The translations under genes were made by a program, and so were the position numbers. From a virus, in IMG/VR virus record IMGVR_UViG_3300037086_000398, positions 4,362 to 68,361 of that record: DNA of 64,000 nucleotides; one strand, 5' to 3'. Position 1 is the stretch's first letter; each line of letters begins with the position of its first letter. The notes under the pieces were generated by a model. The model worked only from the letters and a program-made list of their open reading frames with translations, searched no databases and was not told the DNA's origin. Positions 9,053 through 60,699 of this stretch are shown here, piece by piece.

Positions 9053-9102
9053 AACAACGGCTCCTGAAAGGGAGCCGTTGTTATTTTGGCATATTTCTCT
9101 AT

Positions 9103-9615: not shown

Positions 9616-9641
9616 GCATATTTTATACAGGAGGATCACGA

Positions 9642-9815: not shown

Positions 9816-9816
9816 C

Positions 9817-10116: not shown

Positions 10117-10117
10117 A

Positions 10118-10546: not shown

Positions 10547-10955
10547 TGTTGTAATGGATCATTCTCTCATATTCGAAATCAGACAGAAAGTAATTGATCC
10601 ACCAAAGCCTGAGGAAAAGAAAGAAGAACCAACGACACAGCCAGTGTCTCTAAAAAAGACACTTTGGAACAAGAAAGAGCGGCTTGAACAACAAGAAAAA
10701 GAAAGAGAAGAATCAGCTCGCAAGGCTTTAGAGCTTTTAGAGAACAAGCCCGCATCAACTCCACAATCTCCGAGAGAATATGGAGTTGAAATTCATTATT
10801 GGACCGACAAAGCTGGAACCAATTCTTCGAGTATATACAACCACCTAGACCGAACAAGGCCTACGGCCTTAGCGCATATTGACCATCTTACAAGGTTGAT
10901 CAACAAATACAATGCTGCAGAGAAAAGAAAACCAAAGCCAAAAGGAAAAAAGTAA
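10524..10955 (+). CDS. hypothetical protein, paralog A of a tandem pair
   Basis: N-terminus 'MLIQVFHDVVMDHSLIFEIRQK' is shared with the next gene. Confidence 0.4.
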   Translation: MLIQVFHDVVMDHSLIFEIRQKVIDPPKPEEKKEEPTTQPVSLKKTLWNKKERLEQQEKEREESARKALELLENKPASTPQSPREYGVEIHYWTDKAGTNSSSIYNHLDRTRPTALAHIDHLTRLINKYNAAEKRKPKPKGKK

Positions 10956-11253: not shown

Positions 11254-12360
11254 ATGACAAAAAGGGATTACTACGAAGTTTTAGGCATTGATAAAACAGC
11301 TTCTAAAGACGATATCAAAAAGGCCTATAGAAAATTAGCCCTCCAGTTCCATCCGGATAGAAACCAAGACAAACAAGCCGAAGAACAATTCAAAGAAGCC
11401 ACAGAGGCCTATGATATTCTCATGGATTCTGGCAAGCGGGCTCAATATGATCAATTTGGTTTTGGTGGATTGAATCAGAATGGATTCCGTCCAAATCCAC
11501 AAAACTATCGTGGATTTGAAGACATTTTTGGTGGCATGCCGTTTAATGATTTTTTCAATCGAGCATGGGGTGGAGAAAACCCATTTAACAGTTTCTTTGG
11601 TGGTGGAATCCCAAAACAGAATAGAGTTCTTGTTGGAGCTGATGCTCAATACCGTCTCAATTTCGAATTAAAAGACGTTCTTCACGAAAAGAAAATAGAG
11701 TTCGATTTTCCAAGAAAAGAGATTTGTGACACGTGTCATGGTAATGGAATAGCTTCAGACGGCAAAGAAACAATGTGTCCAGCGTGTGGTGGTAGAGGAC
11801 GTATCAGAACCAAACAACAAGGATTCTTTGTCATGGAAATGGGATGCCAGAGATGTGGTGGAACAGGTATGACCATTGACAAGCCTTGCCATACATGCAA
11901 GGGCGAGAAGTTAGTATTAAAAACAAAAACCGTCAAGATCAGGATTCCTTCAGGAATTAGTGATGGGGCAACTCTGAAGCTCAACGGTGAGGGACATCAG
12001 AGTCCAAATGGTGGCCCTTCTGGTGATTTATATATAACCGTAAAAGTAAAATCTCATCCTCACTTTAAGCGTCAGGGAAACTCTCTTCATTGCATTGCTG
12101 AGGTTCCATTTGTTCAAGCAATTTTAGGAGATACAATTCCATTGGTTTGGATAGATGATACAACATTGCTTATTGTTGTTCCTTCTAACACTAAAAATGG
12201 AGAAGTCATAAAAATACCCGGAAAGGGCATTGCTGGAGACACTCTCTTTATCAATGTCATAATCAAAATGCCTAAGACCCTGACAGACAGTCAGAAGCAG
12301 GCCATTAAATCACTGAATCTTGAAAAAGATGTCAGTATGCAGCTCAAGGAGATAAGCTGA
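11254..12360 (+). CDS. dnaJ: DnaJ (Hsp40) chaperone, full-length type I
   Basis: J domain with HPD ('LALQFHPDRN'), a Gly/Phe-rich linker, four CxxCxGxG zinc-finger repeats ('CDTCHGNG', 'CPACGGRG', 'CQRCGGTG', 'CHTCKGEK'), and a C-terminal domain. Confidence 0.85.
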   Translation: MTKRDYYEVLGIDKTASKDDIKKAYRKLALQFHPDRNQDKQAEEQFKEATEAYDILMDSGKRAQYDQFGFGGLNQNGFRPNPQNYRGFEDIFGGMPFNDFFNRAWGGENPFNSFFGGGIPKQNRVLVGADAQYRLNFELKDVLHEKKIEFDFPRKEICDTCHGNGIASDGKETMCPACGGRGRIRTKQQGFFVMEMGCQRCGGTGMTIDKPCHTCKGEKLVLKTKTVKIRIPSGISDGATLKLNGEGHQSPNGGPSGDLYITVKVKSHPHFKRQGNSLHCIAEVPFVQAILGDTIPLVWIDDTTLLIVVPSNTKNGEVIKIPGKGIAGDTLFINVIIKMPKTLTDSQKQAIKSLNLEKDVSMQLKEIS

Positions 12361-22250: not shown

Positions 22251-23834
22251 ATGGACATTCAGAAAATGATGATGGAAGAAAGGGAGAAACTGCTAGTTAA
22301 GTGGCAGCCCTTCCTAGAGGGCATTGACAATGATTACATCGCTGGTAACACTGCACTGCTCCTCGAAAATGAGGCCCGCTATTTGGCGGAAGCCCCAACA
22401 CAAGCATCCGACGTTGTCGGTTTGCAAAAGATCATGTTGCCAATCGTAAGACGTGTATTCCCAAATCTTATTGCTAACAACTTGGTCTCAGTACAGCCAA
22501 TTGCTGCCCCAGCCGGAATTATCTTCTACTTGAGATACATCTTCGGAACCCAGAGACCAGGCGTTACGCCAACTGGTGTCGGTGATGAATTCTCTATGTA
22601 TGAGGATACAGCAGGACAGATGGCCGGATACAACCCATGGTATTCAACCGACGAAATCGGACCATACGTTGCCACAGGCGCGAACGTTGCAAACAACGGA
22701 ACAGTCGCCACCCCAGGAGCTGCCGCTCAGTATACTCAGTGGCCACTTGCTGGAAGCAGCGCGTTCTTCGGAACAATTGAAGAGTTGAATGCTGATGGCT
22801 CTGTAGCCGCAGTATTTTCTTTCTCTTTTGACGCCGGATACCCACTTCCTGGCTCAATCAGCCTTGGAAATTTCGGTAATCCATCCAACACAGGTCTTCC
22901 ACTAGCAGTGACTCAGAACAGTCAGTTGCCAGCTGGAACATATCCTGGGTACAACGTCAGACCAGCCGATAAGCTACAGGTTACAACCAATTATACCGTC
23001 TCTGTTGCAAACAACACTGGTATCGTTACAGTAACCAATGCTACCGGTGCTGCAGTTGCAGGTTTGAAGGTTTCAGCTTGGTACAAGACCAACTTGGAAT
23101 ATTCCACTGCAATCCCTGAGATGAAGATCACTATTTCTTCTATCCCAGTAGCAGTAAAGACCCGCAAGCTAAAGGCTATGTGGTCACAGGAATCTGAGCA
23201 AGACTTGAAGGCATATCACGGTCTTTCCGCTGATGCCGAATTGACTGCACTCGTTTCTAACGAAATGATTGCTGAAATCGACCGCGAAATCATCCAGAAG
23301 TGTCTCACAATTGCTCCAGCTACCTCAAGAATGACACACAACTATTCCGCATTTGCCGGAAACAACGTCACTGGAAACTTCCTTGATAGCCACTTGGCAA
23401 TCATGCAGAAGGTAACAGTCCTTTCAAATGAAATCTTCAGAAAGAGCAAGATTGGACCAGCCAACTGGATCGTAACTGGAACCAAGGTTGCATCATATAT
23501 CGAAGTATTGAAGGGATTCATTCCAAATCCAGTAACAGCATCTATGGGCATGAATATCGTAAAAGCAGGCACGTATGCCGGAAAATTCGATATTTATAAG
23601 GACCCAATGTTCCCAGATGATAAGATGTTGATGGGCCACAAGTCTCCAGCTTCTCCATTTGGAGCCGGGTTGGTTTACAGTCCTTATGTTACCAACTTGA
23701 CACCAGTCCTGGTTGGGCAAGATGACTTCAATCCACGCAGAGGATTCCTCGCGAGATATGGATTGACGCAAGTACCTTTTGGACAGTTGTTATATGGGGT
23801 TCTCTCCATTACCAATTTGCCAGGTGCATACTAA
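22251..23834 (+). CDS. major capsid protein, T4 gp23-like
   Basis: 527 aa. 'IVRRVFPNLIANNLVSVQPI' and 'QDLKAYHGLSADAELTALVSNEMIAEIDREI' closely resemble T4 gp23 segments recalled from memory; strong RBS 'agggagg'. Confidence 0.8.
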   Translation: MDIQKMMMEEREKLLVKWQPFLEGIDNDYIAGNTALLLENEARYLAEAPTQASDVVGLQKIMLPIVRRVFPNLIANNLVSVQPIAAPAGIIFYLRYIFGTQRPGVTPTGVGDEFSMYEDTAGQMAGYNPWYSTDEIGPYVATGANVANNGTVATPGAAAQYTQWPLAGSSAFFGTIEELNADGSVAAVFSFSFDAGYPLPGSISLGNFGNPSNTGLPLAVTQNSQLPAGTYPGYNVRPADKLQVTTNYTVSVANNTGIVTVTNATGAAVAGLKVSAWYKTNLEYSTAIPEMKITISSIPVAVKTRKLKAMWSQESEQDLKAYHGLSADAELTALVSNEMIAEIDREIIQKCLTIAPATSRMTHNYSAFAGNNVTGNFLDSHLAIMQKVTVLSNEIFRKSKIGPANWIVTGTKVASYIEVLKGFIPNPVTASMGMNIVKAGTYAGKFDIYKDPMFPDDKMLMGHKSPASPFGAGLVYSPYVTNLTPVLVGQDDFNPRRGFLARYGLTQVPFGQLLYGVLSITNLPGAY

Positions 23835-36841: not shown

Positions 36842-37903
36842 ATGAGTGATTCTTCAACAGCACTGGCACCGGTAGATGTGAAAAGTTTATCGAAGCCCGA
36901 TCTTTCAAAGGCTTTGGATTTTGCCAAAGCAATCGACCCGGGAAACACCGGCAACTTGATCCAGTACGGCACTGGAGCACAGAGCAAAATTGCCAGCCTC
37001 GCCGACAACATGCTTACTCAGATCAGGACGAAGGATACGGGCGAGGTCGGAGAAGCTCTCACAGACTTGATGTTCAAGGTGAAGGATGTGGACGTCTCTG
37101 GTCTTACGAAGGACCACAAGGGTCTCTTCGCCAATCTGAAAAACAAGGTCGAACACTTCATGGCGAAGTACGAAAAGCTCGAAACCCAAATCGACCACAT
37201 CATCGACCAGCTCAATAAGAGCAAGATGCAGATGATCACCGACATCAACATGCTCGACCAACTCTACAAGCAGAACCTCGACTACATGCACGGTCTCGAT
37301 CTATACATCGCTGGTGGACAGCTCCGTCTCGAAGAGCTCAAGACCAAGCTTCTGCCCCAGATGCAGGAGAAGGCCAAGGCTTCTGGCACGCCTGAAGACG
37401 CACAGGAGCTCAGTGACTTCAACAACTTCATCTCCCAAGTGGAGAAGAAGCTCTATGATCTCAAGCTGAGCCGGATGATCTCCATCCAGACGGCTCCCCA
37501 GGTCAAGTTGATCCAGGGCGGAGATCAAGTTCTAGTCCAGAAGATTCAGAGCTCCATCATGACGACTATTCCTCTCTGGAAAAACCAGATCGTCATCGCC
37601 ATCTCTCTCTTCAGGCAGAAGAAAGCGTTGGGAGTTGAGAAGGCCGTCACAGACGCCACGAATGATCTTCTCAAGAAGAACTCCGAGCTTCTCCATCAGG
37701 GAACTGTCGAAGTTGCCAAGGAGAATGAGAGGGGCATTGTGGACATCGAGACTCTCGAGCAGACAAACTCTGATCTCATCGCAACGATCGAGGATTGTAT
37801 CCAGATTCAGGAAGAGGGAAAGCAGAAGAGAGCGGCTGCAGAACAGACTCTCATCCAGCTCGAAAGCGATCTCAAGGCGAAGCTCACAGCAGTTCGCAAC
37901 TAA
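36842..37903 (+). CDS. TelA-like toxic-anion-resistance protein
   Basis: '...IQYGTGAQSKIASLADNMLTQIRTKDTGEVGEALTDLM...' matches the TelA/KlaB pattern; ~355 aa coiled-coil; RBS 'aaggagaaaagg'. Confidence 0.55.
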   Translation: MSDSSTALAPVDVKSLSKPDLSKALDFAKAIDPGNTGNLIQYGTGAQSKIASLADNMLTQIRTKDTGEVGEALTDLMFKVKDVDVSGLTKDHKGLFANLKNKVEHFMAKYEKLETQIDHIIDQLNKSKMQMITDINMLDQLYKQNLDYMHGLDLYIAGGQLRLEELKTKLLPQMQEKAKASGTPEDAQELSDFNNFISQVEKKLYDLKLSRMISIQTAPQVKLIQGGDQVLVQKIQSSIMTTIPLWKNQIVIAISLFRQKKALGVEKAVTDATNDLLKKNSELLHQGTVEVAKENERGIVDIETLEQTNSDLIATIEDCIQIQEEGKQKRAAAEQTLIQLESDLKAKLTAVRN

Positions 37904-37958
37904 CAAAGGCATTTGCTTGGCTCTCATATATGAGAGCCAAGAGATTTATCCTAGGAGG

Positions 37959-39629
37959 ATGAAAATGAAGCGTGGTTTGATTGGTGGATTGATTATCGTA
38001 TTAGTCGTAGGTCTGGGACTTGGGTTCAAGTTCATTTTCATGAACAAACCGAACCCTTCTACCAACAGCACTACGGCACAGACAAGTGCGGCTGGACTCA
38101 CTTTCGCGAAGGCAGCTCCCGTTACTCTGCCTCCAGTTGGTGGATACAAGCTGGCAAGTGTGGATCTTGGGGATGGACCCGTTCCTCTCCTCACGATTCC
38201 TCTTGATACTTGGGGCGGATATGCCGCCATCTTTGCTGCAAACGGCGGATTGAAGCCAAACAAGGACAGTCTTTTTTACAAGAAGGGCCACTTCGCAGTT
38301 CAGATTGTCAGCGAAGAGAGCTCTGAGAAGCAGCTTCAGGGATATGCAAGCGGACAGTGGCCGATTATTTGGACCCAGATGGACGCAATGCCTCTGTTCC
38401 TCGACGCTTTCAAGGCTGATAAGCGTGTTTCGCCGAAGACTCTTTTGCTACTCGACTGGAGCGATGGTGGAGACGGAATTCTTTTCCGCAATACCATCAA
38501 ATCTGCCGCAGATCTGAAGGGAAAGATTGTTATCACTTCGAGCAATACTCCATTCAGCTTTATGCTGCTTTGGTATTTGGCTCAGAACGGCCTGACTGGA
38601 AACGACGTTAAGGTTGCTTGGATTGATGATGGTGATAAGGCCCTCAAAGAGTTCAAGAACAACAAAGATGTTGCAGCTTGGGTCAGCTGGACTCCCTACA
38701 TCAACGATGCTGCAGATTCGAGCTCACCGAACTATATTTCTGATGCACACTTGGTCATCTCCTCGAAGGATGCCAATCAGGTTATCGCTGACCTTCTTAT
38801 GGTCAGAAGTGATTTGCTTGCCGACAAACCTCAAATGATGCAGGATTTTGTCGAGGCAGTAATGGAAGGGACTCAACAGATCGGAACTCAGACCTTTAAC
38901 GATATGGCAACCTTCTACAAGGTAAAAGCCGGGGATGCAAAAGACATGCTCACTGATGTGCATATCGCAAACTTTCCTGAGAACAAGATGTTCTTCGATT
39001 CGAATAACTCTATCGGGGCCTACAAGGTGTTCTTGCTTTCTCAGGAATACTACAAGCAACTTGGTGCTCTGGGCGCAGATGCAAGCTATGGACCTGAGAG
39101 GGTTCTTGCTCCCAAGATCATTGCAGCACTCGATAAGAAGGGCATCTTCAACAATCAGAAAAACATGATGGTCAATTCTTTTAACAAGAAGGCCTCATTC
39201 GACATTTCTGATCTTGAGAACCAGAGAGTGGTTCTTACAAACAATGTTGATCTGTTCTTCGAAGCACAGAAACTCGACTTTGATGTCAACAGCTCCAGCC
39301 CTGATATCAAAAATAATATGGTCCTTCTCAGTAAGGTTGCTGAACAGACAAAGTTCCTTGCAACTACTGTTGTCAAGTTGGCTGGGTATCTCGATACCGC
39401 GAAGGTTGCCGATTTCAAGGCTCAGGGCAATCAACAGTTTATCGAGGCAAGCGCTCAGGCGAAGTTGATTTCCAAGAAGAGGGCCGAGTTTATCAAGTCG
39501 GTTCTCGTCAAGAACTTCAGCGTGGACCCTGATCGTATCTTCACTGAAGGAAAGGGATGGGACAACCCGATCTCGGATGACCCGAATAAGAACCGCCGAG
39601 TCGAAGTGCGCTTTATCTCTCTGGAGTAG
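37959..39629 (+). CDS. membrane-anchored protein with periplasmic substrate-binding-like domain and C-terminal OmpA-like domain
   Basis: N-terminal transmembrane 'LIGGLIIVLVVGLGLGF', a central SBP-like region, and a C-terminal 'TEGKGWDNPISDDPNKNRRVEVRFI' OmpA/MotB peptidoglycan-binding motif. RBS 'aggagg'. The track ORF starts at 37635 but overlaps the previous gene. Confidence 0.5.
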   Translation: MKMKRGLIGGLIIVLVVGLGLGFKFIFMNKPNPSTNSTTAQTSAAGLTFAKAAPVTLPPVGGYKLASVDLGDGPVPLLTIPLDTWGGYAAIFAANGGLKPNKDSLFYKKGHFAVQIVSEESSEKQLQGYASGQWPIIWTQMDAMPLFLDAFKADKRVSPKTLLLLDWSDGGDGILFRNTIKSAADLKGKIVITSSNTPFSFMLLWYLAQNGLTGNDVKVAWIDDGDKALKEFKNNKDVAAWVSWTPYINDAADSSSPNYISDAHLVISSKDANQVIADLLMVRSDLLADKPQMMQDFVEAVMEGTQQIGTQTFNDMATFYKVKAGDAKDMLTDVHIANFPENKMFFDSNNSIGAYKVFLLSQEYYKQLGALGADASYGPERVLAPKIIAALDKKGIFNNQKNMMVNSFNKKASFDISDLENQRVVLTNNVDLFFEAQKLDFDVNSSSPDIKNNMVLLSKVAEQTKFLATTVVKLAGYLDTAKVADFKAQGNQQFIEASAQAKLISKKRAEFIKSVLVKNFSVDPDRIFTEGKGWDNPISDDPNKNRRVEVRFISLE

Positions 39630-39637
39630 AAACAGTT

Positions 39638-40447
39638 ATGAAGAAAATACTGGTTCTATTGGCAGTTCTAACTATGTTGATTGGATGCGGAGAGCAAGTG
39701 CCCTCCGCATCTTCACCCAGTGCTCCAAAACATGAGTCACCGTTCGCAGGAACCCCAGGATATATCCTGAGGTTTGGAAGTGACTTCAAGACTGGAATGA
39801 ATTCAGTCGATGATTTTGGAATCTCTGTGGTTATTGCGATGGATGTGAGTGGATCAATGGCCGATCAACCCCAAAGTGGTGGAGAGCCTAAGTTCATTCA
39901 GGCGACCAAAGCTCTTGCCACGGTTGCAAGTTATATCGAAACTCTAGCTCAAAAACAAAAGGATTTGAAAATCCAAGTCTCAATCCTGAGATTCAACAAT
40001 CATGTTGAGGAAGTGCTCCCTCTGACTCTCTTGAATACTGCTGGTGTTATTAAGCTCAATAATGCGGTCAATCCCGGCAATTTCAGGCCCAATGGCGGAA
40101 CAGCAATTGGTGGAGCAATGCAGCTTGGTTCTGAGATTCTTGCTCAATCAGGAACTATCTTCAACTCTCTGATCATAGTAACTGATGGTGAAAACAACGT
40201 CAATCCTGATCCAGAGGACGTCATGAAGGCGATGTATAGCAACCGCAACAACATCACCAATGAAGATATGAAGATTACAACATCAAGCCAACTTGTTTCG
40301 TTTGTTGGATTTGATGTACAGTCGAAACAATTTGGTGAGTTCCACACTCTAGGTGCGAGAGTGACTTCAGCCAATAGTCAGGTGGAGATCGAAAATAGTC
40401 TTAAGGCATTCCTCGAAGCTGATATCACGAAACTCGAGGGCAGATAA
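39638..40447 (+). CDS. vWA-domain lipoprotein
   Basis: Signal peptide plus lipobox 'LIGC'. MIDAS motif 'VIAMDVSGSM' with '...TAIGGAM...IIVTDGENN'. Confidence 0.6.
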   Translation: MKKILVLLAVLTMLIGCGEQVPSASSPSAPKHESPFAGTPGYILRFGSDFKTGMNSVDDFGISVVIAMDVSGSMADQPQSGGEPKFIQATKALATVASYIETLAQKQKDLKIQVSILRFNNHVEEVLPLTLLNTAGVIKLNNAVNPGNFRPNGGTAIGGAMQLGSEILAQSGTIFNSLIIVTDGENNVNPDPEDVMKAMYSNRNNITNEDMKITTSSQLVSFVGFDVQSKQFGEFHTLGARVTSANSQVEIENSLKAFLEADITKLEGR

Positions 40448-47165: not shown

Positions 47166-47690
47166 TCAGTCATCTATATTCTCCAAAAGAGCTTTGGCAT
47201 AAGTAGCTTCAGTGAGGTAGACAGGATAAAAAGATCCCACGAACGATGGATAGTAGTCTCCAATATTTTCAGTTCCGAATTCGACCACTACCTTTGAAAT
47301 GAGTGGGTTGATCATGAGCAAAACATCAAAGTTTTCGTGTTCGTCGTCGGCCTTCTTTTCACAAACCACTTCAACCGGATCGAACACATTTTTCACTTCA
47401 CCATCAATGAAAATGTCTCCCATAGAGGATCGATAACCATCGTTTGGATCTTCGAAGACGGAGTAGATGATTCCATCGAGAATAAATCTGATGACGTTGG
47501 CTCTGTCAGTTCCAATGCCAAAAGCAGCTGGGACCTGGGCATAGTCGGTCTCAACACCAGTAAGAATATGGGTTCCAAGTAAATCATCAATTTTAACAGT
47601 CTTAATGTTGTCCATAACATATAAATTATGCATATTTGATTCAAATGAAACATATCTTCTATCACCGCAGTGACAATGATGGTAAGACAT
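47166..47690 (-). CDS. hypothetical protein (minus strand)
   Basis: 174-aa ORF. Confidence 0.4.
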   Translation of the reverse strand: MSYHHCHCGDRRYVSFESNMHNLYVMDNIKTVKIDDLLGTHILTGVETDYAQVPAAFGIGTDRANVIRFILDGIIYSVFEDPNDGYRSSMGDIFIDGEVKNVFDPVEVVCEKKADDEHENFDVLLMINPLISKVVVEFGTENIGDYYPSFVGSFYPVYLTEATYAKALLENIDD

Positions 47691-48544
47691 CTGGAGCCAT
47701 TATTAAATACGCCAATCCAGACAGCGTTCTGCACCCATATGAATACAACGACCCATTCCCATATGATCTCATCAAAGATGAAGATGAAATCATTTTTACA
47801 GATGCTGTTGCTCCATATCCTGAGCTTCTGAAAATCATCGACAAATATCATACCACTATTATTGATCATCACATCTCACTCATCAACTTTTTGAAAGATC
47901 ACCAACTCGATCCAGATGGTTATCGTAGAAATGATTATGTGGCAGCTTGTGAGCTTTGTTGGGAGTATTATTTCAAGACGAAGTTGCTCCCACAATCAAT
48001 CAAACTCATTTCAACTTATGATTGCTGGGACAATCGCAATAAAGAAAATTGGGACAACGTTGTTCTTCCTTTCCAATATGGATTGAGAAGATTCGGTATG
48101 GATCCTCTGAGCAATTGGCCATTTTGGCAGAATCTGCTCGACAAGATTGTAAATAATCCATCTGCAGATTTGGATTTTGTAGAAGAAAACATTTCTGCTG
48201 GTAAATCGATTTTGATCTATCAAACAAATGTCGCTGCAGAGATCATGCACACAAACTTTTTCGACGCTCAATTTGAAGGACTTCGCGCCCTTTGTTGCAA
48301 CACAAACATCAAGAACAATCAATTTTTTGCATCAAAGTGGGATGAGAGCAAATATGAATTGATGGTGGGATTTGATATCAGATCTGATCAGGCAATAAGA
48401 GTAAGTCTTTATACCACTAGAAATGATGTTGATGTCAGTAGGGTGGCTGGAAGATTTGGTGGCGGGGGTCACAAACAAGCTTCTGGATTTTTGGCAAAAA
48501 CATATCGCATCTTTAATGGTCAATTATTTTTTGTACATTTCTAG
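47636..48544 (+). CDS. DHH/DHHA1 family phosphoesterase (NrnA/RecJ-like)
   Basis: Motifs 'YHRSDNDGKTSGAII', 'IIDHH' and C-terminal 'GGGHKQASGF' (the DHHA1 GGGH motif). Confidence 0.65.
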   Translation: MIQMKHIFYHRSDNDGKTSGAIIKYANPDSVLHPYEYNDPFPYDLIKDEDEIIFTDAVAPYPELLKIIDKYHTTIIDHHISLINFLKDHQLDPDGYRRNDYVAACELCWEYYFKTKLLPQSIKLISTYDCWDNRNKENWDNVVLPFQYGLRRFGMDPLSNWPFWQNLLDKIVNNPSADLDFVEENISAGKSILIYQTNVAAEIMHTNFFDAQFEGLRALCCNTNIKNNQFFASKWDESKYELMVGFDIRSDQAIRVSLYTTRNDVDVSRVAGRFGGGGHKQASGFLAKTYRIFNGQLFFVHF

Positions 48545-51548: not shown

Positions 51549-52394
51549 ATGGCACCCAAAATTGATCTACTTATCATAGACCCACAGTTGGACTTTTGTA
51601 GCCCTACTGGTGCGCTCTCGGTGGTTGGAGCAGATGCAGATTGTGATCGTCTAGCGGCGATGATTGCTCGAGTTTCTGACCGCTTGAACGATATTCACGT
51701 CACGTTAGACACGCACCACTGGTTCGACATCGCCCATCCGTCTTTCTGGATCAGTGGAAAAGACAACAAATCCCATCCTGCACCCTTCACACTCATCACG
51801 GAAGATGATGTGAAGAATGGTGTCTGGAAGACGACGGTTCCAGCCTACCAGAACCGCCGCACCATGAAGGCCCATGGAATGGACCGTGATGGAGCTGAGG
51901 AATATGTCCACCAACTCACAGTCAACAACCGCTACGTTCTTTGCATCTGGCCGCCCCACTGTCTCATCGGAAGTGATGGTGCCAAAGTCATGCCGGTCGT
52001 GTGGAATGCTCTTAACAAATGGGAACAGGATCATGACACCGCATTCGTCGACTACGTCACCAAGGGTTCCAACTACTGGACTGAGCACTATAGTGCCATC
52101 ATGGCTGATGTACCTGATCCAGAGGATCCATCAACTCAGCTCAACACCAAGCTCATTGAAACCCTTCAGGAAGTCGATCTGATTGGTATCTCTGGTGAAG
52201 CCCTCTCACATTGTGTTGCGTCTACTATCACCGACATCGCCAATAATTTTGGTGAAGAGAACATCAAGAAGTTCGTTCTGATCGAAGACACTTCATCAAA
52301 TGTCACAGGGTTCGAGCAGCTTGGCATCGACTTCGTGAAAAACATGAAGGCTCGCGGAATGCAGACTGCCAAGGCCGATGACTTTCTGAGGTAA
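51549..52394 (+). CDS. isochorismatase-family hydrolase, nicotinamidase (PncA)-like
   Basis: 'DLLIIDPQLDFCSPTGALSVVGADA' is the isochorismatase/nicotinamidase N-terminal motif; a candidate catalytic Cys lies in '...ISGEALSHCVAST'. GC is roughly 49%. Confidence 0.6.
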   Translation: MAPKIDLLIIDPQLDFCSPTGALSVVGADADCDRLAAMIARVSDRLNDIHVTLDTHHWFDIAHPSFWISGKDNKSHPAPFTLITEDDVKNGVWKTTVPAYQNRRTMKAHGMDRDGAEEYVHQLTVNNRYVLCIWPPHCLIGSDGAKVMPVVWNALNKWEQDHDTAFVDYVTKGSNYWTEHYSAIMADVPDPEDPSTQLNTKLIETLQEVDLIGISGEALSHCVASTITDIANNFGEENIKKFVLIEDTSSNVTGFEQLGIDFVKNMKARGMQTAKADDFLR

Positions 52395-52405
52395 GGAGAA
52401 GAAGG

Positions 52406-53140
52406 ATGCCTATAATCAAAGAAGACCAGATCATGAAGGTGCCGGGAAGTGCATTCTCATTTTCGGCAATCAAGCCCGAACATCTTGAAGCAACAGAATA
52501 CACGTTGGTCACAGTGGTTATTGACGAGTCTGGAAGCATTAGTGGTTTCAAGGATGATCTTCTGAAAATGTTGAAGGAAGTCGTGAAAGCATGTCAAAAG
52601 AATCCAAGATCTGAAAACCTCATGCTCCGCCTCGTAACCTTCAACACAAGTCTCACTGAACAGCATGGATTCAAGTTGCTTGCAGACATTGACCCCAGTC
52701 AATATGCTGAATTCAATCCAGGCGGAGGAACAGCACTCTTTGATTCCACATTCGAAGCCATCGGCGCTACGGCGACCTATTCACAAAGCCTCACTGCAAG
52801 TGATTTCACAGTTAATGGGGCAGTTTATATCATCACTGATGGTGAAGACAATGCTTCTAAGTTTTCGGCCATGATGGTGAAAACTGCGGTTGATAAGACA
52901 AAGAATGCAGAAGTTATTGAAAGCCTCATCACCGTGCTCATCGGTCTCAACACCAATCAGTGTGGAGTATCTTTGAAGAGATACAAGGATGATGCTGATC
53001 TTACTCAATATATCGACATGGGCGACGTCACTCCAGGTAAGTTGGCGAAACTTGCAGGATTCATCAGCAAGAGTGTTTCAAGTCAGTCCCAGTCTCTTGG
53101 ATCTGGTGGGCCTTCTGCTCCAGTCGATCTTACCATCTAA
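52406..53140 (+). CDS. vWA-domain protein, TerY-like
   Basis: MIDAS 'VVIDESGSISGF' with '...GGGTALFDST...YIITDGEDN'; a cytoplasmic vWA of about 240 aa, as in TerY. Confidence 0.6.
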   Translation: MPIIKEDQIMKVPGSAFSFSAIKPEHLEATEYTLVTVVIDESGSISGFKDDLLKMLKEVVKACQKNPRSENLMLRLVTFNTSLTEQHGFKLLADIDPSQYAEFNPGGGTALFDSTFEAIGATATYSQSLTASDFTVNGAVYIITDGEDNASKFSAMMVKTAVDKTKNAEVIESLITVLIGLNTNQCGVSLKRYKDDADLTQYIDMGDVTPGKLAKLAGFISKSVSSQSQSLGSGGPSAPVDLTI

Positions 53141-53187
53141 TCAGACCCTCCGCTAAAAAGCGGTTGATGATAGGATCTGATTTTTTC
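53141..53187 (+). terminator. complex hairpin + T-run
   Basis: 'tcaga...ccgctaaaaagcgg...tctga' followed by TTTTTT. Confidence 0.4.
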
Positions 53188-53193
53188 ATATAA

Positions 53194-53219
53194 GGGGGCC
53201 GTCAAAAGCCCCCTTTTTG
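53194..53219 (+). terminator. rho-independent terminator
   Basis: 'gggggc-cgtcaaaa-gccccc' followed by TTTTT. Confidence 0.65.
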
Positions 53220-53364
53220 AAAAGAGGTGAATATGGTAGTGCCAGAAAAAGTTTACGAAACAGCAAAAAAGATGATTCTAATAAGCCGCATTCTTATGAT
53301 AGTTTGCGGCATTGTCATCTTAGGATGCATTGTAATGATTTTCATACCAAAGTAAGGAACGATA

Positions 53365-53835
53365 ATGGGAACTGAAATTGAAAGAAAGTTTCTCGTTAAA
53401 GGAAACTCCTACAGAAATGGAGTCAAGGCCAAGACATATCGTCAAGGCTATTTTTCGACTTCAATGAAGCACACTGTTCGAGTTAGAACTGTCAATATGA
53501 AGGGTTTCATTACTGTTAAGGGCAAGAAAACAGGAATTTCTCGTCTTGAATTTGAATATGAAATTCCATTTGCTGATGCAGAAGTCATGTTGGAATTGCT
53601 TTGTGAAAGACCACTAATTGAAAAGATTCGATATGTGCTTAAGTATAAGGCAATGACTTGGGAAATTGATGAATATTTTGGAGAAAATGCTGGACTTGTT
53701 GTAGCAGAGGTTGAACTCAAAAGTGAGAATCAACAAATTTTGTATCCTCCTTGGATTGGCAAAGAAGTCTCTGATGACAATCGATATGCAAATTCGAATC
53801 TCGTCAGAAATCCATATAGGCTGTGGAAGAAATGA
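53365..53835 (+). CDS. CYTH-domain protein (triphosphate tunnel metalloenzyme, CyaB/ThTPase-like)
   Basis: N-terminal 'EIERKFLV' is the CYTH signature; length about 155 aa. Confidence 0.55.
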   Translation: MGTEIERKFLVKGNSYRNGVKAKTYRQGYFSTSMKHTVRVRTVNMKGFITVKGKKTGISRLEFEYEIPFADAEVMLELLCERPLIEKIRYVLKYKAMTWEIDEYFGENAGLVVAEVELKSENQQILYPPWIGKEVSDDNRYANSNLVRNPYRLWKK

Positions 53836-54074
53836 AGAAACAAATTCAAATGGGTTCTCAAAAAATGTATGAGACTCCACCAGCCGGAGACATGAGATTT
53901 CTCAAGGACCACGATCAGATCTATGTCAACGTAAACGATCTCCTTGCAACAATGCATGGAGCTATTGAGTTGATGGATGTCTTGAATCCTGATGAATCTA
54001 AAATGCTTCACAGCTTCTCAGACATGCTTAGTGGAGTGTTACTCAATGAGGAAGAGGATGGAACAGAAAACTAA
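53823..54074 (+). CDS. hypothetical protein
   Basis: 83-aa ORF. Confidence 0.3.
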   Translation: MEEMKKQIQMGSQKMYETPPAGDMRFLKDHDQIYVNVNDLLATMHGAIELMDVLNPDESKMLHSFSDMLSGVLLNEEEDGTEN

Positions 54075-54357
54075 AGTCGAAGAATTCGAGAAAAAGCTAC
54101 GATTTGCTGCCAAGTCTATTGGAATAGAACATATAGAGTCTAACGCAGCAAATTGTGATGATGGTTCTATTCTTATTGAGGTTTATTGTGGCAAACAGGG
54201 ATCACCTGAGAGCAGGAGATTGGGATTTTCTTTCGAAGAGGACGGACATACTTTCTATTGGTATATCTCTAAGAAAAAACCTTTTTTCGTAGAAGATGGA
54301 CCCATGGAGGGACTAGACATAAAGGCTCTTCTGAAGCGCTTTTACAAGAAGGGGTAG
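53992..54357 (+). CDS. hypothetical protein
   Basis: 121-aa ORF; the true start may be an internal Met. Confidence 0.3.
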   Translation: MNLKCFTASQTCLVECYSMRKRMEQKTKVEEFEKKLRFAAKSIGIEHIESNAANCDDGSILIEVYCGKQGSPESRRLGFSFEEDGHTFYWYISKKKPFFVEDGPMEGLDIKALLKRFYKKG

Positions 54358-54359
54358 AA

Positions 54360-55187
54360 ATGCTACTTGATAGTTTTATGGGAATTGGAAAAACACACCA
54401 AGTCTGTGAAGACTATTCTCTAGTTGGAAAAATACCACTTCCATTTCTCATTGTAAGCGATGGTTGTTCTTCTTCGAAGAACACGGATATTGGGGCACGC
54501 CTTCTTGCTCTGACTGCCAAAAAGCAGCTTTATGCGGCTCTTGCATATGGTATTCTGCCTTATGATCCAGATACCTTTGGAAAAAAGCTCATAGAGATAG
54601 GAATCAATGTCGTCGATCAGCTTGGAGTAAATAGGAGTGCTCTCGACGCGACTCTTCTTCTTGGGTATCTTTACGAAGGGATGTTTAATTTTGCTTGTTT
54701 TGGCGATGGGGCCATTATCTTCAAATCTAAGAAGGGCAATGGATTTATTCAACTTTCTTATACACAGAACGCTCCCTATTATCTCACAGTCCATGGAGAT
54801 GAAAAGATTAGGACCCAGTGGTCAGAGGTGTATCCTAATAATGAACTCTTAGTAAGATCATATATGTTTGCTGATGGTGAAAACAGGGTGGAACAAGTTG
54901 GAGCGGAACCTCCTTATTATAGAGGGTTCATGTCGATTCAAGATCTTGAGATGTTTATGCTAGTTTCTGATGGTATCGGATCTTTTTGCAAAATCGCAGA
55001 TGGATCTATGGTTCCTGTTCAAGATGTCGTCAGTCGAATGCTTGAAATCAAAGTCAAAAATGGTGAGTATATCAAACGTCGCATGAAGAAAATGATTGAG
55101 GGTTTCGCTCGGGATGGAATCTATCCTCTCGACGATATATCAGTTGCCTCAGTAATTTTTGAGGAGAGCGACGATGACCAATTTTGA
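54360..55187 (+). CDS. PP2C-family Ser/Thr phosphatase-like protein
   Basis: PP2C-like motif series 'LIVSDGCSSS', 'ACFGDGAII', 'LVSDGIGSF'. Confidence 0.5.
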   Translation: MLLDSFMGIGKTHQVCEDYSLVGKIPLPFLIVSDGCSSSKNTDIGARLLALTAKKQLYAALAYGILPYDPDTFGKKLIEIGINVVDQLGVNRSALDATLLLGYLYEGMFNFACFGDGAIIFKSKKGNGFIQLSYTQNAPYYLTVHGDEKIRTQWSEVYPNNELLVRSYMFADGENRVEQVGAEPPYYRGFMSIQDLEMFMLVSDGIGSFCKIADGSMVPVQDVVSRMLEIKVKNGEYIKRRMKKMIEGFARDGIYPLDDISVASVIFEESDDDQF

Positions 55188-55500
55188 CATTTCGAAGTGT
55201 ACGTTCAACACTGAAAAAACAGATGATCCGAAGCTTGTTGTCTATCTCACATGGATGTGGAAGCCTGGTTACGATCCAAGCGGCCGAGGGTATTTTTCTC
55301 TTAGAGCCATTTCCCTTACAAAAGAACATGCTCGATACGCAAAAGAATCAGCAAAAATTGATTATCCGAATTGCAAGGTCCACGTGGAAGAAAGCATAGC
55401 AGAACATCTCTTTGGAGAAAGCTTCGGCAATTTTCATAGAGCTGATGGTGATGAGCCTCCTAATGGATGGGAGGGTGCTAATATCGAGGAAGAAGATTGA
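55159..55500 (+). CDS. hypothetical protein
   Basis: 113-aa ORF. Confidence 0.3.
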   Translation: MRRATMTNFDISKCTFNTEKTDDPKLVVYLTWMWKPGYDPSGRGYFSLRAISLTKEHARYAKESAKIDYPNCKVHVEESIAEHLFGESFGNFHRADGDEPPNGWEGANIEEED

Positions 55501-57173
55501 GCTCATTGACTGCGGTTTTTCAAACCAAAGAGACGAGACTCACCGACAAAAATTACCTTGGTGAAGGTGGAGAGGGCGTCATCTATCTAAAAGACGGACT
55601 CATCTATAAGATCTATCACGAGAAAAACGATATCATTACTGCACAAAAGCTTGCTGAATTGTCCGTTTTGAAAAGAATCAACATCATTACTCCACTTGGA
55701 CATGTGTATAACTCAAGGGGTTTGCCTATTGGCTACGCAATGAACTTCGTCCAAAATACTTCTCCTCTTGCAAGATTGTTCACAACCAGCTTCCGCAATC
55801 GCAACAACATCACTCCAGAAATGGCAACCAAACTTGTTGAGAAAATGGCTGAAACGATCCATTATATCCATCAAAATGGAATCATCATTGTGGATGGAAA
55901 TGAGTTCAACTATCTCGTCGATGGCACGACTTTCATAATCCCATATTTTATTGACGTAGATAGCTATCAGACAAAATCGTTTCCAGCTAAAGTGATTATG
56001 CCTTCAATTCGAGACTGGCAGTCTAAGATATTCTCTCCTCTTACAGATTGGTATAGTTTTGCGATCGTGGCTACTCAGATCTTTGTTGGTATTCACCCAT
56101 TCAAAGGAAACCATCCAAATTATCCTAAGAATGATTTGAAAGCCCGTCAATTGGCCAATGTCTCCATCTTCAACAAGGAAGTCAGTACTCCACCAGCAAC
56201 AAGGGACTATGGTCTTATTCCTTCAGAATATATGAATTGGTTTGTGGATGTTTTTGAGAAAGGAAAGAGGACTCCGCCACCAACAATCGTTGGTAAGATT
56301 ATCACCAAGGCTCAGCTTGTGATTGAGACGGGTAAGGATAAGTTTGTGATTGAAAAGATTTTCGATGCCGATTCCACAATCACTGGATGTGGTTGGACGT
56401 TTGGAAACAGAATTATGTTCAGTGAGAAAAGCTCTTACATCAATTCTCATAATAAGCCTCTTCCATCCAAGAGTGCTGGAGTCATTTACTTCGACAATAC
56501 TGCCTATCTCATTGATGTGAAGAAAGGCAAACTACTTGTCAGCAATTACAACAATGGACAGGTTTTAAGTGACTCTATTATTGCAGACCGTAAGCTCATC
56601 GTTGACAACAGAATCTATGTCATTAATGACGACAAGTTGATGGAAATCAAGTTTAAGGGAATCAGTGGAAAAATTTTCATCACAACTGGAAACGTATGGA
56701 GCATCCTTCCAAACTCCACCCATGTGTTTCGTGAAATCATCTACTCAGACGTTCTTGGAAAACCCTATTTCTATATCCCCTTCAAGGAAGATGCATGTTC
56801 GATCGTTCAGATTCCTGAACTCGTGAAGCATAAAATAATTGATGCCAAATATGAAAATGGGATCTGCATATTGCTCACATTCGTCAAAAATCTCTACAAT
56901 AGAGTAGTGATCAAGTTCAATCCAGACTTCCAAACATATGCCTTCGAAATGGAATCAGACGTCATTCCATCTGGAATCAACTTCGTCTCTCTTCCAAACA
57001 ACATCTATATGCATTACACTGGAGAAGGAGAGGTTGTGATTGGAAGCAGATTTAAACCAGAAAAGAAGATCTTCTCAGACATCAAGTTTGACAATGACAT
57101 CACCCTCTGCCACAATGGACTCGAGGTTTATTACTACTCAGAAAATACCCTCTACAAAATCAAGGTGAAATGA
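55497..57173 (+). CDS. Ser/Thr protein kinase-like protein
   Basis: Glycine loop 'LGEGGEGVIY', Lys in 'IYKIYHE', a catalytic-loop-like 'IHQNGIIIVDGNEFNYLV', and a DFG-like 'FIDVDSY', followed by a long C-terminal beta-rich region. Confidence 0.5.
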   Translation: MSSLTAVFQTKETRLTDKNYLGEGGEGVIYLKDGLIYKIYHEKNDIITAQKLAELSVLKRINIITPLGHVYNSRGLPIGYAMNFVQNTSPLARLFTTSFRNRNNITPEMATKLVEKMAETIHYIHQNGIIIVDGNEFNYLVDGTTFIIPYFIDVDSYQTKSFPAKVIMPSIRDWQSKIFSPLTDWYSFAIVATQIFVGIHPFKGNHPNYPKNDLKARQLANVSIFNKEVSTPPATRDYGLIPSEYMNWFVDVFEKGKRTPPPTIVGKIITKAQLVIETGKDKFVIEKIFDADSTITGCGWTFGNRIMFSEKSSYINSHNKPLPSKSAGVIYFDNTAYLIDVKKGKLLVSNYNNGQVLSDSIIADRKLIVDNRIYVINDDKLMEIKFKGISGKIFITTGNVWSILPNSTHVFREIIYSDVLGKPYFYIPFKEDACSIVQIPELVKHKIIDAKYENGICILLTFVKNLYNRVVIKFNPDFQTYAFEMESDVIPSGINFVSLPNNIYMHYTGEGEVVIGSRFKPEKKIFSDIKFDNDITLCHNGLEVYYYSENTLYKIKVK

Positions 57174-57370
57174 TGGAAGAGTGGGAAAGAGCGAAGTTTC
57201 TTCTTTTAGGTGGTAAGGAGTCCTCCGTCTATTACCACTGCTATTGTTTACACTGCAAACAGGTCGTGCATAGTTCTCTATCGAAGGAAGAAGAGATGAA
57301 GGTGGTGGACAGTCTCAAAAGACAGTGTCCAAGATGTCACAGTCCCAGAAGCATCGTAGTCAGTAATTAA
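57170..57370 (+). CDS. divergent SCR-like small Cys protein
   Basis: 'ERAKFLLLGGKE...CYCLHC...CPRCH'. Confidence 0.4.
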   Translation: MMEEWERAKFLLLGGKESSVYYHCYCLHCKQVVHSSLSKEEEMKVVDSLKRQCPRCHSPRSIVVSN

Positions 57371-57371: not shown

Positions 57372-57572
57372 ATGGAAATCTGGAAACAGGCTAAAGAACT
57401 TCTCGCTCCAACACAAGAAAGAACTAGGGGATATTATGTTGAATGTAAGCCTTGTGGATTGGGTGTGGTAACAAGCACAATACAACGAGCAGACGAAATA
57501 GTTGGACAACACCAAGACTGTTCAAGTTGCAGAGGCGCTGGAGCGGTCACAATTTCAAAACTAAAGGAGTAG
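57372..57572 (+). CDS. divergent SCR-like small Cys protein
   Basis: 'KQAKELLAP...CKPCG...CSSCRG'. Confidence 0.4.
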   Translation: MEIWKQAKELLAPTQERTRGYYVECKPCGLGVVTSTIQRADEIVGQHQDCSSCRGAGAVTISKLKE

Positions 57573-58878: not shown

Positions 58879-59115
58879 ATGAAGACTAGGATTTACTACA
58901 ACAAAAAAAATGGAAGCTACTTCAGCTATCAACCTAAAAGAGGAAACTGTGCCCTTCTCATCCTTTCTAAAGGAGCGGTTCGAGCCTCTGTTGATTTTGG
59001 CGGCAGGGCGTATTTCAAAGAGCTTTTGAAAACGAGTGTTTTGGTAACAGACGACAAAGCAAAACTGGCTAAACTGCTATTGCAAGGAGTGGATTGGCGT
59101 TGTCTAATTGATTGA
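58879..59115 (+). CDS. hypothetical protein
   Basis: 78-aa ORF. Confidence 0.3.
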   Translation: MKTRIYYNKKNGSYFSYQPKRGNCALLILSKGAVRASVDFGGRAYFKELLKTSVLVTDDKAKLAKLLLQGVDWRCLID

Positions 59116-59144
59116 GGCATAATTCTAATGTTCAGGAACACAAT

Positions 59145-60107
59145 ATGAAACTTGAAGACATAGGATTCTATACACTCTCTGATGCTCGAGCCGCTTCTTC
59201 AAGTGAATTCTCACCTCTTTCGAGGTGTGAGTTGATCCTTACCGACAGGTGCAACTTCAAGTGCCCATATTGCAGGGGTGTGAAGGAAGAATACCACGGT
59301 GACATGCCGAAGGAGAGAGCTTTTGAGATTGTGGAGTCTTGGGTTTCTCATGGCTTGAAGAACATCCGTTTCTCTGGTGGAGAGCCGACTTATTACAAGT
59401 ATTTGATGGATCTCGTGTTGATCGCTCGAAGAAGCTGTGAGCACATTGCCATCTCCACCAACGGAACTGCTCCGATCGAAATGTATGAATCTCTCATAAA
59501 ATATGGAGTCAATGACTTCTCTATCTCACTTGATGCCTGTTGTTCTTCAACAGCGGAGACTATGAGCGGAGGAGTTGCAGACTTCGATGAGATCTGCAAT
59601 ACGATCATGGAACTCAGCCACAAGACATATGTCACAGTTGGAGTAGTTCTCACACCGGACAACATCAAGGAGACTGGTGAGATTATCAAGCTTGCCGACT
59701 TTTTGGGAGGGAGTGATGTTCGAATCATTCCGGCAGCACAGTGGAAAGTAGGACTCGAACTGTTTGAGATTGATAAGAAGATTCTCGATAGGTATCCGAT
59801 CCTCGAGTATCGATACAACAATCTCAAAAATGGAATCTCTGTCAGAGGTCTCTCTGAGAGTGACAACCACGGATGTCCGCTCGTGCTGGACGATATGGCC
59901 GTGATCGGAGACGACCACTATCCATGTGTCATCTATCTCAGAGAACAGGGAAAGCCGATTGGCAAGTTCTCTGATATCTCTCAGGTCAGAGCCGAAAGGG
60001 CCAATTGGTTTGAATCCCACGATGTCTATGAGGACCCGATTTGTAGAAGCTCTTGTCTTGACGTATGCCGTGACTATGGGAACAAATGGAGGGAGTTACA
60101 CGGATAA
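59145..60107 (+). CDS. radical SAM enzyme with SPASM/twitch-like C-terminal Cys cluster
   Basis: 'ILTDRCNFKCPYCRG' is CxxxCxxC; 'RFSGGEPT' is the GGE motif; C-terminal 'CPLVLDDMAVIGDDHYPC...CRSSCLDVC' fits Cx10Gx5C...Cx3Cx3C. Lies directly upstream of the second SCR array. Confidence 0.6.
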   Translation: MKLEDIGFYTLSDARAASSSEFSPLSRCELILTDRCNFKCPYCRGVKEEYHGDMPKERAFEIVESWVSHGLKNIRFSGGEPTYYKYLMDLVLIARRSCEHIAISTNGTAPIEMYESLIKYGVNDFSISLDACCSSTAETMSGGVADFDEICNTIMELSHKTYVTVGVVLTPDNIKETGEIIKLADFLGGSDVRIIPAAQWKVGLELFEIDKKILDRYPILEYRYNNLKNGISVRGLSESDNHGCPLVLDDMAVIGDDHYPCVIYLREQGKPIGKFSDISQVRAERANWFESHDVYEDPICRSSCLDVCRDYGNKWRELHG

Positions 60108-60144: not shown

Positions 60145-60699
60145 ATGCTGAAAGAGCTCGTTTTCAAAGCATATTCCTTCGCAGAACTCAAACACAAGGA
60201 TCAGACACGCAAATACTCTGGCATCCCCTATTTCACCCACCCCAAGGCCGTTGCACGTATTCTCGAAGCGCTTGTCAAGGACCCTGAAATCGTCGCCTGT
60301 GGCCTACTTCACGATGTCGTGGAGGACTCGGGAACTCTCATTCAAGAAATCAAAGACAACTTTGGAGACCGAGTGGCTTCCATTGTTGATGAACTCACCA
60401 ACAAAAAGGAAGAGCGTGGAATCATGAAGAAGAGAGACTATCTCTTCCAAAAGATTCGTAAAATTTCTTCCGATGCTCTTACTGTTAAACTAGCCGATCG
60501 CCTTCACAACATCGAATTTCTTGAAAGAGACCTTGGTGGAAAAGAAGCTAAACAGTTCATCTGCTACTATTACGAAGAAACTCGCTATGTGTTTGGAACT
60601 CTCATCGACGACAGAGAATTGAATGAGGTCCAGAAGGTTCTGTTGAAAAACATTGACGCTGTTCTCGACTTCCTCAAACTAATGCACAATCTAGACTAG
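60145..60699 (+). CDS. HD-domain (p)ppGpp hydrolase, SpoT/Mesh1-like small alarmone hydrolase
   Basis: 'YFTHPKAVARIL...IVACGLLHDVVED' and 'KLADRLHN' match RelA/SpoT HD-domain motifs; 184 aa with no synthetase domain. Confidence 0.65.
   Translation: MLKELVFKAYSFAELKHKDQTRKYSGIPYFTHPKAVARILEALVKDPEIVACGLLHDVVEDSGTLIQEIKDNFGDRVASIVDELTNKKEERGIMKKRDYLFQKIRKISSDALTVKLADRLHNIEFLERDLGGKEAKQFICYYYEETRYVFGTLIDDRELNEVQKVLLKNIDAVLDFLKLMHNLD

Follow-up and report, generated by a model that had tools for sequence, protein, structure and literature searches.

A conserved nicotinamidase-vWA-PP2C-kinase cassette in a large phage genome: a possible phosphorylation-gated module of NAD+ salvage

Genes for a protein kinase, a protein phosphatase and a vWA protein, lying beside one for a nicotinamidase, raise the question of what such a group does for its carrier. 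The case considered here is a 64,000-nucleotide stretch of viral DNA (positions 4,362 to 68,361 of IMG/VR record IMGVR_UViG_3300037086_000398; hereafter the window), whose + strand encodes at 51549-57173 a PncA-type nicotinamidase, a vWA protein, a CYTH enzyme, a PP2C phosphatase and a Hanks-type Ser/Thr kinase, together with three small open reading frames (ORFs). A sequence-only reading had taken this block for the TerY-P triad, joined by two further enzymes. The explanation that we prefer, with moderate confidence, regards the block as the phage version of a conserved cassette of four genes, PncA-vWA-PP2C-propeller kinase, belonging to the economy of NAD+ and ADP-ribose, and has it working as a phosphorylation-gated nicotinamidase module of NAD+ salvage.

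The genes of the block are closely packed or overlap, and no + strand terminator is predicted inside it. Promoter and terminator scans yielded no excess over shuffled expectation. An independent gene caller gave the same genes on an identical 10-kb Logan contig, reached through its identical vWA protein. GC content, previously put at about 48-50%, is 42.0% for the whole block compared with 41.5% for the window; it is elevated only in the nicotinamidase gene (49.9%) and, weakly, in the vWA gene (44.9%), the other block genes lying at 37-43%. Since three of the five domain scores (hydrolase, vWA and kinase) fell under the curated cut-offs, each call was tested at the level of its family; Pfam and NCBIfam searches together with these tests reproduced all five domain identities of the sequence-only reading, on the same strand and at the same coordinates.

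The hydrolase (51549-52394, 281 amino acids (aa)), of the isochorismatase-like cysteine hydrolase type, matches the NCBIfam nicotinamidase/pyrazinamidase model PRK11609 with E 1.3e-9 (38.2 bits; cut-off 174) and Pfam Isochorismatase with E 0.012 (16.2 bits, under the cut-off of 27). A profile of 29 relatives found only nicotinamidases and cysteine hydrolases in the PDB, the best match being yeast Pnc1 (2h0r, E 1.2e-15). Across these relatives the Asp-Lys-Cys catalytic triad, D11/K172/C222, is invariant, K172 and C222 aligning with the KG and CV motifs of Pnc1. Equally invariant are D54, H56 and H137, which align with the 'DwH' (D-x-H) and 'WPvHC' (WPxHC) motifs of 2h0r; these motifs carry what we take to be the Zn ligands of Pnc1 (D51/H53/H94). 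The protein is longer than the solved nicotinamidases that it matches (180-235 aa), and its residues ~64-118 form an internal stretch unaligned to them. The scores under the cut-offs mark a divergent subfamily, for which hydrolysis of nicotinamide is predicted; the alignments bear out the earlier suggestion of an NAD-related enzyme.

The vWA gene (52406-53140) starts 11 nucleotides past the nicotinamidase stop and encodes a stand-alone protein of 244 aa. Its match to Pfam VWA (E 3.9e-4) is under the cut-off, and that to phrog_7371 has E 7e-14. A PDB profile search with the family alignment returned zero matches, and fold-level evidence was used instead: the AlphaFold2 (AF2) model (pLDDT 88.7) has a vWA fold, with vWA and integrin I domains as its top Foldseek matches. 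The metal-ion-dependent adhesion site (MIDAS) is intact, as had been noted before, its residues D40-x-S-x-S44, T109 and D145 being conserved in the family; D40, S44, T109, D145, G146, S221, S223 and S228 are invariant. The last three belong to a conserved Ser-rich C-terminus, FxSxSxSSQSQxLGxGG, which AF2 puts in the last helix (residues 210-233). Several relatives are labelled 'YegL' by JGI, which we take to be a COG described with a TerY-type vWA domain. The Pfam scan found no TerY_C domain in the protein, and its Foldseek matches are to generic vWA domains only.

The phosphatase (54360-55187, 275 aa) exceeds the Pfam PP2C_2 gathering cut-off of 24 (33.6 bits, E 3.8e-8). Residues D18, D34-G35, G115-D116-G117, D204-G205 and D258-D259 are invariant in 30 relatives; all the metal-binding Asp residues are thus kept, and this PPM-family protein is predicted to be active. 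Its family profile has weak matches in the PDB to bacterial Ser/Thr phosphatases.

The kinase gene (55497-57173) encodes a 558-aa protein made up of an N-terminal Hanks-type Ser/Thr kinase domain (55497-56279) and a C-terminal seven-bladed beta-propeller (56280-57173), a putative sensor or substrate-docking domain. The match to Pfam Pkinase (E 1.4e-6, 28.3 bits) is just below the cut-off of 31.7, and a PDB profile search with the family alignment gave zero matches, so that here too fold-level evidence was used. In 24 sequences G24, G25, G27, K38, H125, D133, N138, D153, T159 and D184 are invariant, while conservation at E54 and W185 is at least 90%; the alignment also shows D-W-[FY]-S-F, a typical protein-kinase motif. 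The invariant T159, in the activation segment, suggests autophosphorylation. A small-molecule kinase, raised by an 'IDVD' motif, was ruled out by the conserved protein-kinase segment D-W-[FY]-S-F...HPF. Loss of catalytic residues, the ground for refutation named in the sequence-only reading, was looked for in the alignments and not found; catalytic and metal-site residues are invariant in all four families, nicotinamidase, vWA, PP2C and kinase.

The arrangement of these genes goes far beyond chance; more than 100 loci from other genomes have the same order. Homologues in public data number more than 450 full-length for the kinase and more than 1,200 for the vWA protein. We assembled 166 loci, 80 out of genome assemblies of bacteria and archaea and 80 out of IMG/VR, all of these fetched around kinase homologues, and six from other look-ups (cited below, where needed, by L numbers), and searched all their ORFs with profiles of the PncA, vWA, PP2C and kinase families. 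The conserved unit across them is pncA-vWA-PP2C-kinase, in that order: all four genes are present in 71 of the 77 viral loci and 34 of the 45 genome-assembly loci whose upstream flank is 5 kb or longer, and the canonical order is kept in 67/72 complete viral and 41/42 complete genome-assembly cassettes. The vWA gene is almost always directly 3' of that for PncA, and in rearranged cassettes (L090, L102, L109, L155) PncA-vWA and PP2C-kinase shift as pairs. The nicotinamidase, seen previously as an addition to a triad, is the most conserved member.

Carriers are spread over many phage lineages and no fewer than six bacterial phyla, and include more than 70 phage contigs that are large, T4-like or huge. 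The cultured Desulfonema ishimotonii has the full cassette on a 6.6-Mb contig; other carriers are complete Capsulimonadaceae chromosomes, Pyrinomonadaceae, Blastocatellia, Armatimonadota, Spirochaetota, Myxococcota and gammaproteobacteria. A protein search among GenBank phages found the cassette only in the uncultured huge phages LR756511, LR745208 and LR756500 and on one 6.5-kb fragment, and thus no cultured phage model. Partial versions exist as well. Variovorax megaplasmids keep PncA-vWA beside a Nudix regulator and NAD kinase, without the PP2C/kinase pair: plasmid 2 of Variovorax sp. SRS16, a cultured betaproteobacterium (NZ_LR594667, L167), reads at 6128-10803 Nudix regulator <> PncA-like cysteine hydrolase - vWA, the last with the same Ser-rich tail, then a 207-aa hypothetical protein with an 'HD' dipeptide, a nucleoside deoxyribosyltransferase-like protein and the NAD kinase, with a macro-domain gene nearby and no PP2C or kinase gene. 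The propeller kinase occurs without PncA, vWA and PP2C in L004, L010, L015, L016, L017, L018, L022 and L024, which come from large sulfur bacteria (Beggiatoa, Thiomargarita and other Thiotrichales-type assemblies) and, for L024, from Desulfobacterales; in L016, L017 and L022 an NrtR-like gene lies directly downstream of it. Desulfonema, with the full cassette, and Variovorax, with the PncA-vWA pair, offer experimental entry points.

The company that the cassette keeps points to its sphere of action: it is statistically associated with genes of NAD+ salvage and ADP-ribose metabolism. Neighbours were identified by ORF clustering and Pfam scans of cluster representatives. Profile searches found NrtR (Nudix plus NrtR winged helix) at 51 loci, the nicotinate phosphoribosyltransferase PncB (NAPRTase) at 47, NAD synthetase NadE at 22, NADAR at 18 and a NadD-like adenylyltransferase at 15; by cluster size, ADP-ribosylglycohydrolase (ARH) is present at 10 loci, Tpt1/KptA at 8, NAD-dependent DNA ligase (LigA) at 6, all of them viral, and microbial PARG at 5. 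At least one of NrtR, PncB, NadE, NadD and NADAR lies within the 8-kb flanks of 31/42 complete genome-assembly and 42/72 complete viral cassettes. Typical arrangements are PncB-NadE-PncA-vWA-PP2C-kinase-NrtR in Spirochaetota (L028), NrtR-Tpt1-PncA-vWA-PP2C-kinase in Acidobacteriota, PncA-vWA-PP2C-kinase-PncB in Capsulimonadaceae. In four phages (L125, L137, L145, L161) the salvage genes are set among those of the cassette itself, as PncA-vWA-PncB-(NadE)-PP2C-NadD-kinase. Ter, McrBC, restriction, helicase, nuclease and DNA-processing families were not recurrent around the 166 loci. One other neighbour, seen in genome-assembly loci only, is an approximately 740-aa protein that begins with an S-adenosylmethionine (SAM)-methyltransferase domain and whose large remainder is unassigned, encoded directly after the kinase in L053 (2685-4907) and in 14 other Acidobacteriota/Myxococcota loci.

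As a phosphorylation-gated step of NAD+ salvage the cassette might work as follows. PncA would deamidate nicotinamide, the product of NAD+-cleaving enzymes, to nicotinate, which would pass to NAD+ by the Preiss-Handler route (PncB, NadD, NadE), whose enzymes are phage-encoded in many relatives. The vWA protein would be the partner of PncA, a scaffold, chaperone or regulator acting through its MIDAS site. Kinase and PP2C would form an on/off switch, adding a mark to the vWA protein or to PncA and removing it; candidate phospho-acceptors are the invariant Ser residues of the last vWA helix (S221, S223, S228) and S250 of PncA. The beta-propeller may sense the trigger or dock the substrate. A huge phage could by these means keep or rebuild its NAD+ pool in infection, including after host immunity has depleted NAD+.

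Several observations weigh against this scheme. Its statistics are limited by the 8-kb flanks and by mis-binning in metagenome-assembled genomes (MAGs). At four Armatimonadota loci an ARH gene sits in the PP2C slot between the vWA and kinase genes (L054 2140-3255, L061 6849-7946, L077 1698-2771, L079 1759-2832), accompanied by NADAR at two of them; the reversible mark may therefore not always be phosphate. In Variovorax, where no kinase adjoins, conservation of the Ser-rich vWA helix is just as high, which weakens the reading of this helix as phospho-acceptor. In the window itself a search for pncB, nadE, nrtR and NADAR found none, and the only match of NadD type, a weak one, lies at 9115-9213, 42 kb from the cassette; with no pncB or nadE there, the phage would have to rely for the remaining steps on the host or on genes that it carries outside the window. 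Finally, removal of nicotinamide could lift product inhibition from NADases and so work in their favour, contrary to any benefit for the phage.

That last point is the starting point of the explanation that we rank second, to which we give a small but real probability: the cassette would be a signalling or conflict module of NAD+/ADP-ribose metabolism that destroys nicotinamide, and so relieves inhibition of sirtuins, ADP-ribosyltransferases or NADases and tunes ADP-ribosylation in stress or infection. Nicotinamide is a product inhibitor of sirtuins and NAD+ glycohydrolases, and among the neighbours are the ADP-ribose-removing ARH, PARG and NADAR, Tpt1, and the ADP-ribose sensor NrtR. The occupation of the PP2C slot by ARH fits this explanation, as does the presence in the window and in many phage loci of PncA without PncB within the flanks. 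It accords poorly with the many loci in which PncB, NadE or NadD is adjacent or interleaved, an arrangement that fits flux to NAD+, and no ADP-ribosyltransferase or sirtuin family appears among the annotated recurrent neighbour clusters.

Third comes the explanation closest to the sequence-only reading, a stand-alone antiviral or superinfection-exclusion system of TerY-P type in which the triad would sense a competing phage and the nicotinamidase, with the CYTH enzyme, would be effector or accessory. According to PMC11090510 and PMC4978471 (citing Anantharaman, Iyer and Aravind 2012), TerY-P consists of a TerY-like vWA protein, a PP2C and a Ser/Thr kinase with a zinc ribbon as its fusion partner, and is associated with tellurite resistance and with DNA restriction and processing systems; it is a component of Type II/III-A CoCoNuT systems, and in a defence-active variant, a stand-alone antiphage module, the kinase is fused to an OB fold (Gao 2020, as reported in PMC11090510). 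The likeness is real: a stand-alone MIDAS vWA protein, a PP2C and a Hanks-type kinase with an extra C-terminal domain are co-encoded here with catalytic residues intact, and their genes keep the same strand and order in more than 100 loci.

The differences are no less clear. The C-terminal domain of the cassette kinase is a beta-propeller, whereas that of TerY-P kinases is a zinc ribbon or OB fold; a nicotinamidase gene is fixed upstream of that for the vWA protein; and the partners are PncA and genes of NAD+ salvage and ADP-ribose metabolism rather than ter, McrBC, helicase and nuclease genes. PADLOC models gave no match, even at E <= 10, to the vWA or PP2C proteins of the window and of a second locus (L021), and only weak ones, PD-T4-6 and mad6, to the kinase in scans at E <= 0.01 and E <= 10. 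The release used, PADLOC 2.0.0, presumably contains TerY-P models. Against features annotated TerY among 72,556 plasmids, tblastn gave no match at E <= 0.01. The vWA/PP2C/kinase architecture of the earlier assignment stands, and membership of the family is not supported: because kinase fusion partner, sequence, upstream nicotinamidase and genomic context all differ, the cassette should not, as judged from these comparisons, be filed within TerY-P. By analogy, its vWA protein would likewise be under the control of a kinase/phosphatase pair, and the cassette may be a TerY-P-like triad re-deployed in NAD+ metabolism, one sign that vWA/PP2C/kinase triads are modular switches reused beyond Ter and restriction contexts.

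A role in defence, or as a decoy, is less well supported than one in NAD+ salvage, and we consider it unlikely. Besides the shared architecture and the weak similarity of the kinase to the defence kinases PD-T4-6 and mad6, it draws on the patchy distribution of the cassette, on the transposase that adjoins it in Desulfonema, and on the proposal that neighbourhoods with NrtR, ARH, NADAR and vWA genes are conflict systems (PMC9503650). In the neighbour-joining tree of the kinase the bacterial clades are coherent in taxonomy, and there are at least 11 phage-to-bacterium switches, some of which may reflect phage contigs mis-binned into MAGs. Set against these points, the kinase has neither zinc ribbon nor OB fold, none of the three signalling proteins has a PADLOC model beyond the weak kinase matches, the neighbouring genes encode biosynthetic salvage enzymes and not nucleases or other effectors, a nicotinamidase does not readily suggest itself as a toxic effector, and more than 70 of the carriers are phages. 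As for functionally unrelated neighbours, kinase and phosphatase reprogramming host proteins, after the manner of other phage kinases, and nicotinamidase and CYTH enzyme serving as independent auxiliary metabolic genes, this is very improbable: phage loci often have unrelated genes between the members (median cassette span 5.1 kb in viral and 4.3 kb in genome-assembly loci) and the CYTH gene is clearly an independent insertion, but the four families keep one order across all those phyla and phage lineages, and sub-pairs shift together on rearrangement.

Phosphorylation-gated NAD+ salvage, the explanation that we prefer, has relatives among known systems. NrtR-regulated Preiss-Handler operons of the form nrtR-pncA-pncB-nadD-nadE occur in bacteria (Rodionov et al. 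2008, PMC2330246); like them the cassette has a PncA with full catalytic and metal residues, and its relatives are flanked by NrtR, PncB, NadD and NadE genes. The operons listed there differ in having no vWA, PP2C or kinase genes, the window PncA is longer than the solved nicotinamidases, and the rest of the pathway is not adjacent to it. A further likeness is to the ARG-centric, NrtR/WYL-regulated systems with vWA chaperones (Iyer et al. 2022, PMC9503650), for which a role against viral ADP-ribosylation is predicted. These likewise have, in a single neighbourhood, a Nudix-HTH (NrtR-like) regulator together with ADP-ribosylglycohydrolase, NADAR, phosphatases and a vWA protein. At their centre stands the ARG enzyme, accompanied by rhodanese-type phosphatases and nuclease effectors, whereas ARH is only an occasional neighbour of the cassette; a text search of the paper gave no PncA, isochorismatase or PP2C, and no kinase is described in its section 3.8.

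Among the antiviral defences of bacteria NAD+ depletion forms a major branch, and its reversal by phages is a very active topic. Jumbo phages carrying Preiss-Handler (pncB-nadD-nadE) clusters are documented in a paper whose text does not contain the word 'kinase' (PMC11662467). NAD+ reconstitution as counter-defence is established for NARP1-3, of which, according to abstracts including PMC12774641, NARP1 recycles ADP-ribose by the enzymes Adps and Namat, NARP2 converts nicotinamide through nicotinamide mononucleotide (NMN), and NARP3 comprises PnuC and NadR. With these phages and pathways our case would share the setting, large phages with NAD+ biosynthesis genes, and the rationale, NAD+ rebuilt against NAD+-depleting immunity. 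Unlike the cassette, NARP1-3 as their abstracts present them have neither PncA nor a kinase/phosphatase/vWA switch. None of the NARP enzymes is present in the cassette, and none was seen among the window ORFs covered by general scans, made without a dedicated search; the only related match is a CTP_transf_like protein at 9049-9615. The NARP2 enzymes are presumably Nampt and Nmnat.

The PncA-vWA-PP2C-kinase cassette is undescribed in the full-text literature that we searched, an absence that is not proof, as many subscription papers lie outside its coverage; nor does it appear in the papers checked on the NrtR regulon, jumbo-phage NAD+ metabolism, viral NAD+/ADP-ribose genes (a survey), vWA conflict systems and phage G, the last of which lists a PncA-like gene with its role unassigned. 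The cassette would add to phage NAD+ metabolism a nicotinamidase-based entry to salvage and a regulatory layer, in which kinase, phosphatase and vWA protein are wired into the pathway, neither of them found in that literature. More tentatively, and with distinctly less confidence than in the salvage role as such, we suggest that it may rebuild NAD+ by way of PncA and under the control of a signal, and so be a fourth type of reconstitution module beside NARP1-3: kinase/propeller, PP2C and vWA adaptor would detect NAD+ cleavage, through ADP-ribose, nicotinamide or a modified protein, and switch on the recycling of nicotinamide. If true, this would be the first control of NAD+ salvage by Ser/Thr phosphorylation, spread over several bacterial phyla and used by huge phages against NAD+-depleting immunity.

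The remaining genes of the block appear, from their distribution, to be lineage-specific additions. The CYTH/triphosphate-tunnel metalloenzyme (53365-53835, +, 156 aa) exceeds the Pfam CYTH cut-off of 23.2 (55.6 bits, E 7.8e-15) and matches phrog_6660 (E 6.7e-21); it has the ExExK-type sequence EIERK at residues 4-8, and its best PDB matches are 3typ and 2fbl (NE1496), with E ~1e-17. Among the 166 loci it was found only in L006, a 732-kb metagenomic contig, and so, confined to the lineage of the window phage, it was ruled out as a core member of the cassette. Three small + strand ORFs have no assigned function. The first (53832-54074, 80 aa, no family match), originally listed from a GTG at 53823, has its start overlapping the CYTH stop, was also called on the Logan contig, and has a single homologue, in L006. 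The second (54046-54357, 103 aa as called, no family match) has a possible alternative start, an ATG at 54058 preceded by the Shine-Dalgarno-like GAGGAAGAGG. The third (55174-55500, 108 aa as called, no domain) bridges the PP2C and kinase genes and has no homologue in the fetched loci. Beyond the block, two tandem 66-aa ORFs (57170-57370 and 57372-57572), the first beginning at the kinase stop codon, encode zinc-ribbon-like CxxC...CxxC proteins; the Logan gene caller did not call them. They are a curiosity in view of the fused zinc ribbon that classical TerY-P kinases bear.

The block is placed in a large, distantly T4-like phage genome by the T4-type portal and capsid genes of the window, by its huge-phage relatives and by the 732-kb contig. 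The portal gene lies at 17104-19110 (Portal_T4, E 6e-86) and that for a Gp23-type major capsid protein at 22251-23834 (E 1e-70); the closest relatives of capsid and kinase are from uncultured huge phages of 462-595 kb, and on the 732-kb contig (L006) the kinase is 84% identical and the local gene order the same. At the nucleotide level a megablast search of the block against 50,697 GenBank phages gave zero matches, and the window has no tRNA genes.

Elsewhere in the window, a gene for an RlaP-type nucleotidyltransferase (7973-9052) is followed by that for the cytidylyltransferase-like protein (CTP_transf_like, 9049-9615) already mentioned, which is weakly like the NadD-like genes beside the cassette in other phages and is the sole other candidate NAD+ gene of the window. 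A radical SAM enzyme (59112-60107) and then an HD_4 protein, a RelA/SpoT-type HD hydrolase (60145-60699), are encoded downstream of the block, a possible link to nucleotide or alarmone metabolism; L006 has this pair too, some 3 kb downstream of its cassette. A 664-aa OmpA-C/NMT1-like protein (37635-39629) is followed directly by a second, unrelated VWA protein (39638-40447; VWA, E 1.2e-11). An 845-aa protein encoded at 30722-33259 has major-vault-protein shoulder, vault repeat and SPFH/Band 7 domains, which is unusual for a phage. Of the genes at 4908-5489, 11254-12360 and 47636-48544, two encode proteins with a DnaJ domain, including a full DnaJ whose centre is a zinc finger, and one encodes a DHH/DHHA1 phosphoesterase; they are auxiliary genes typical of huge phages.

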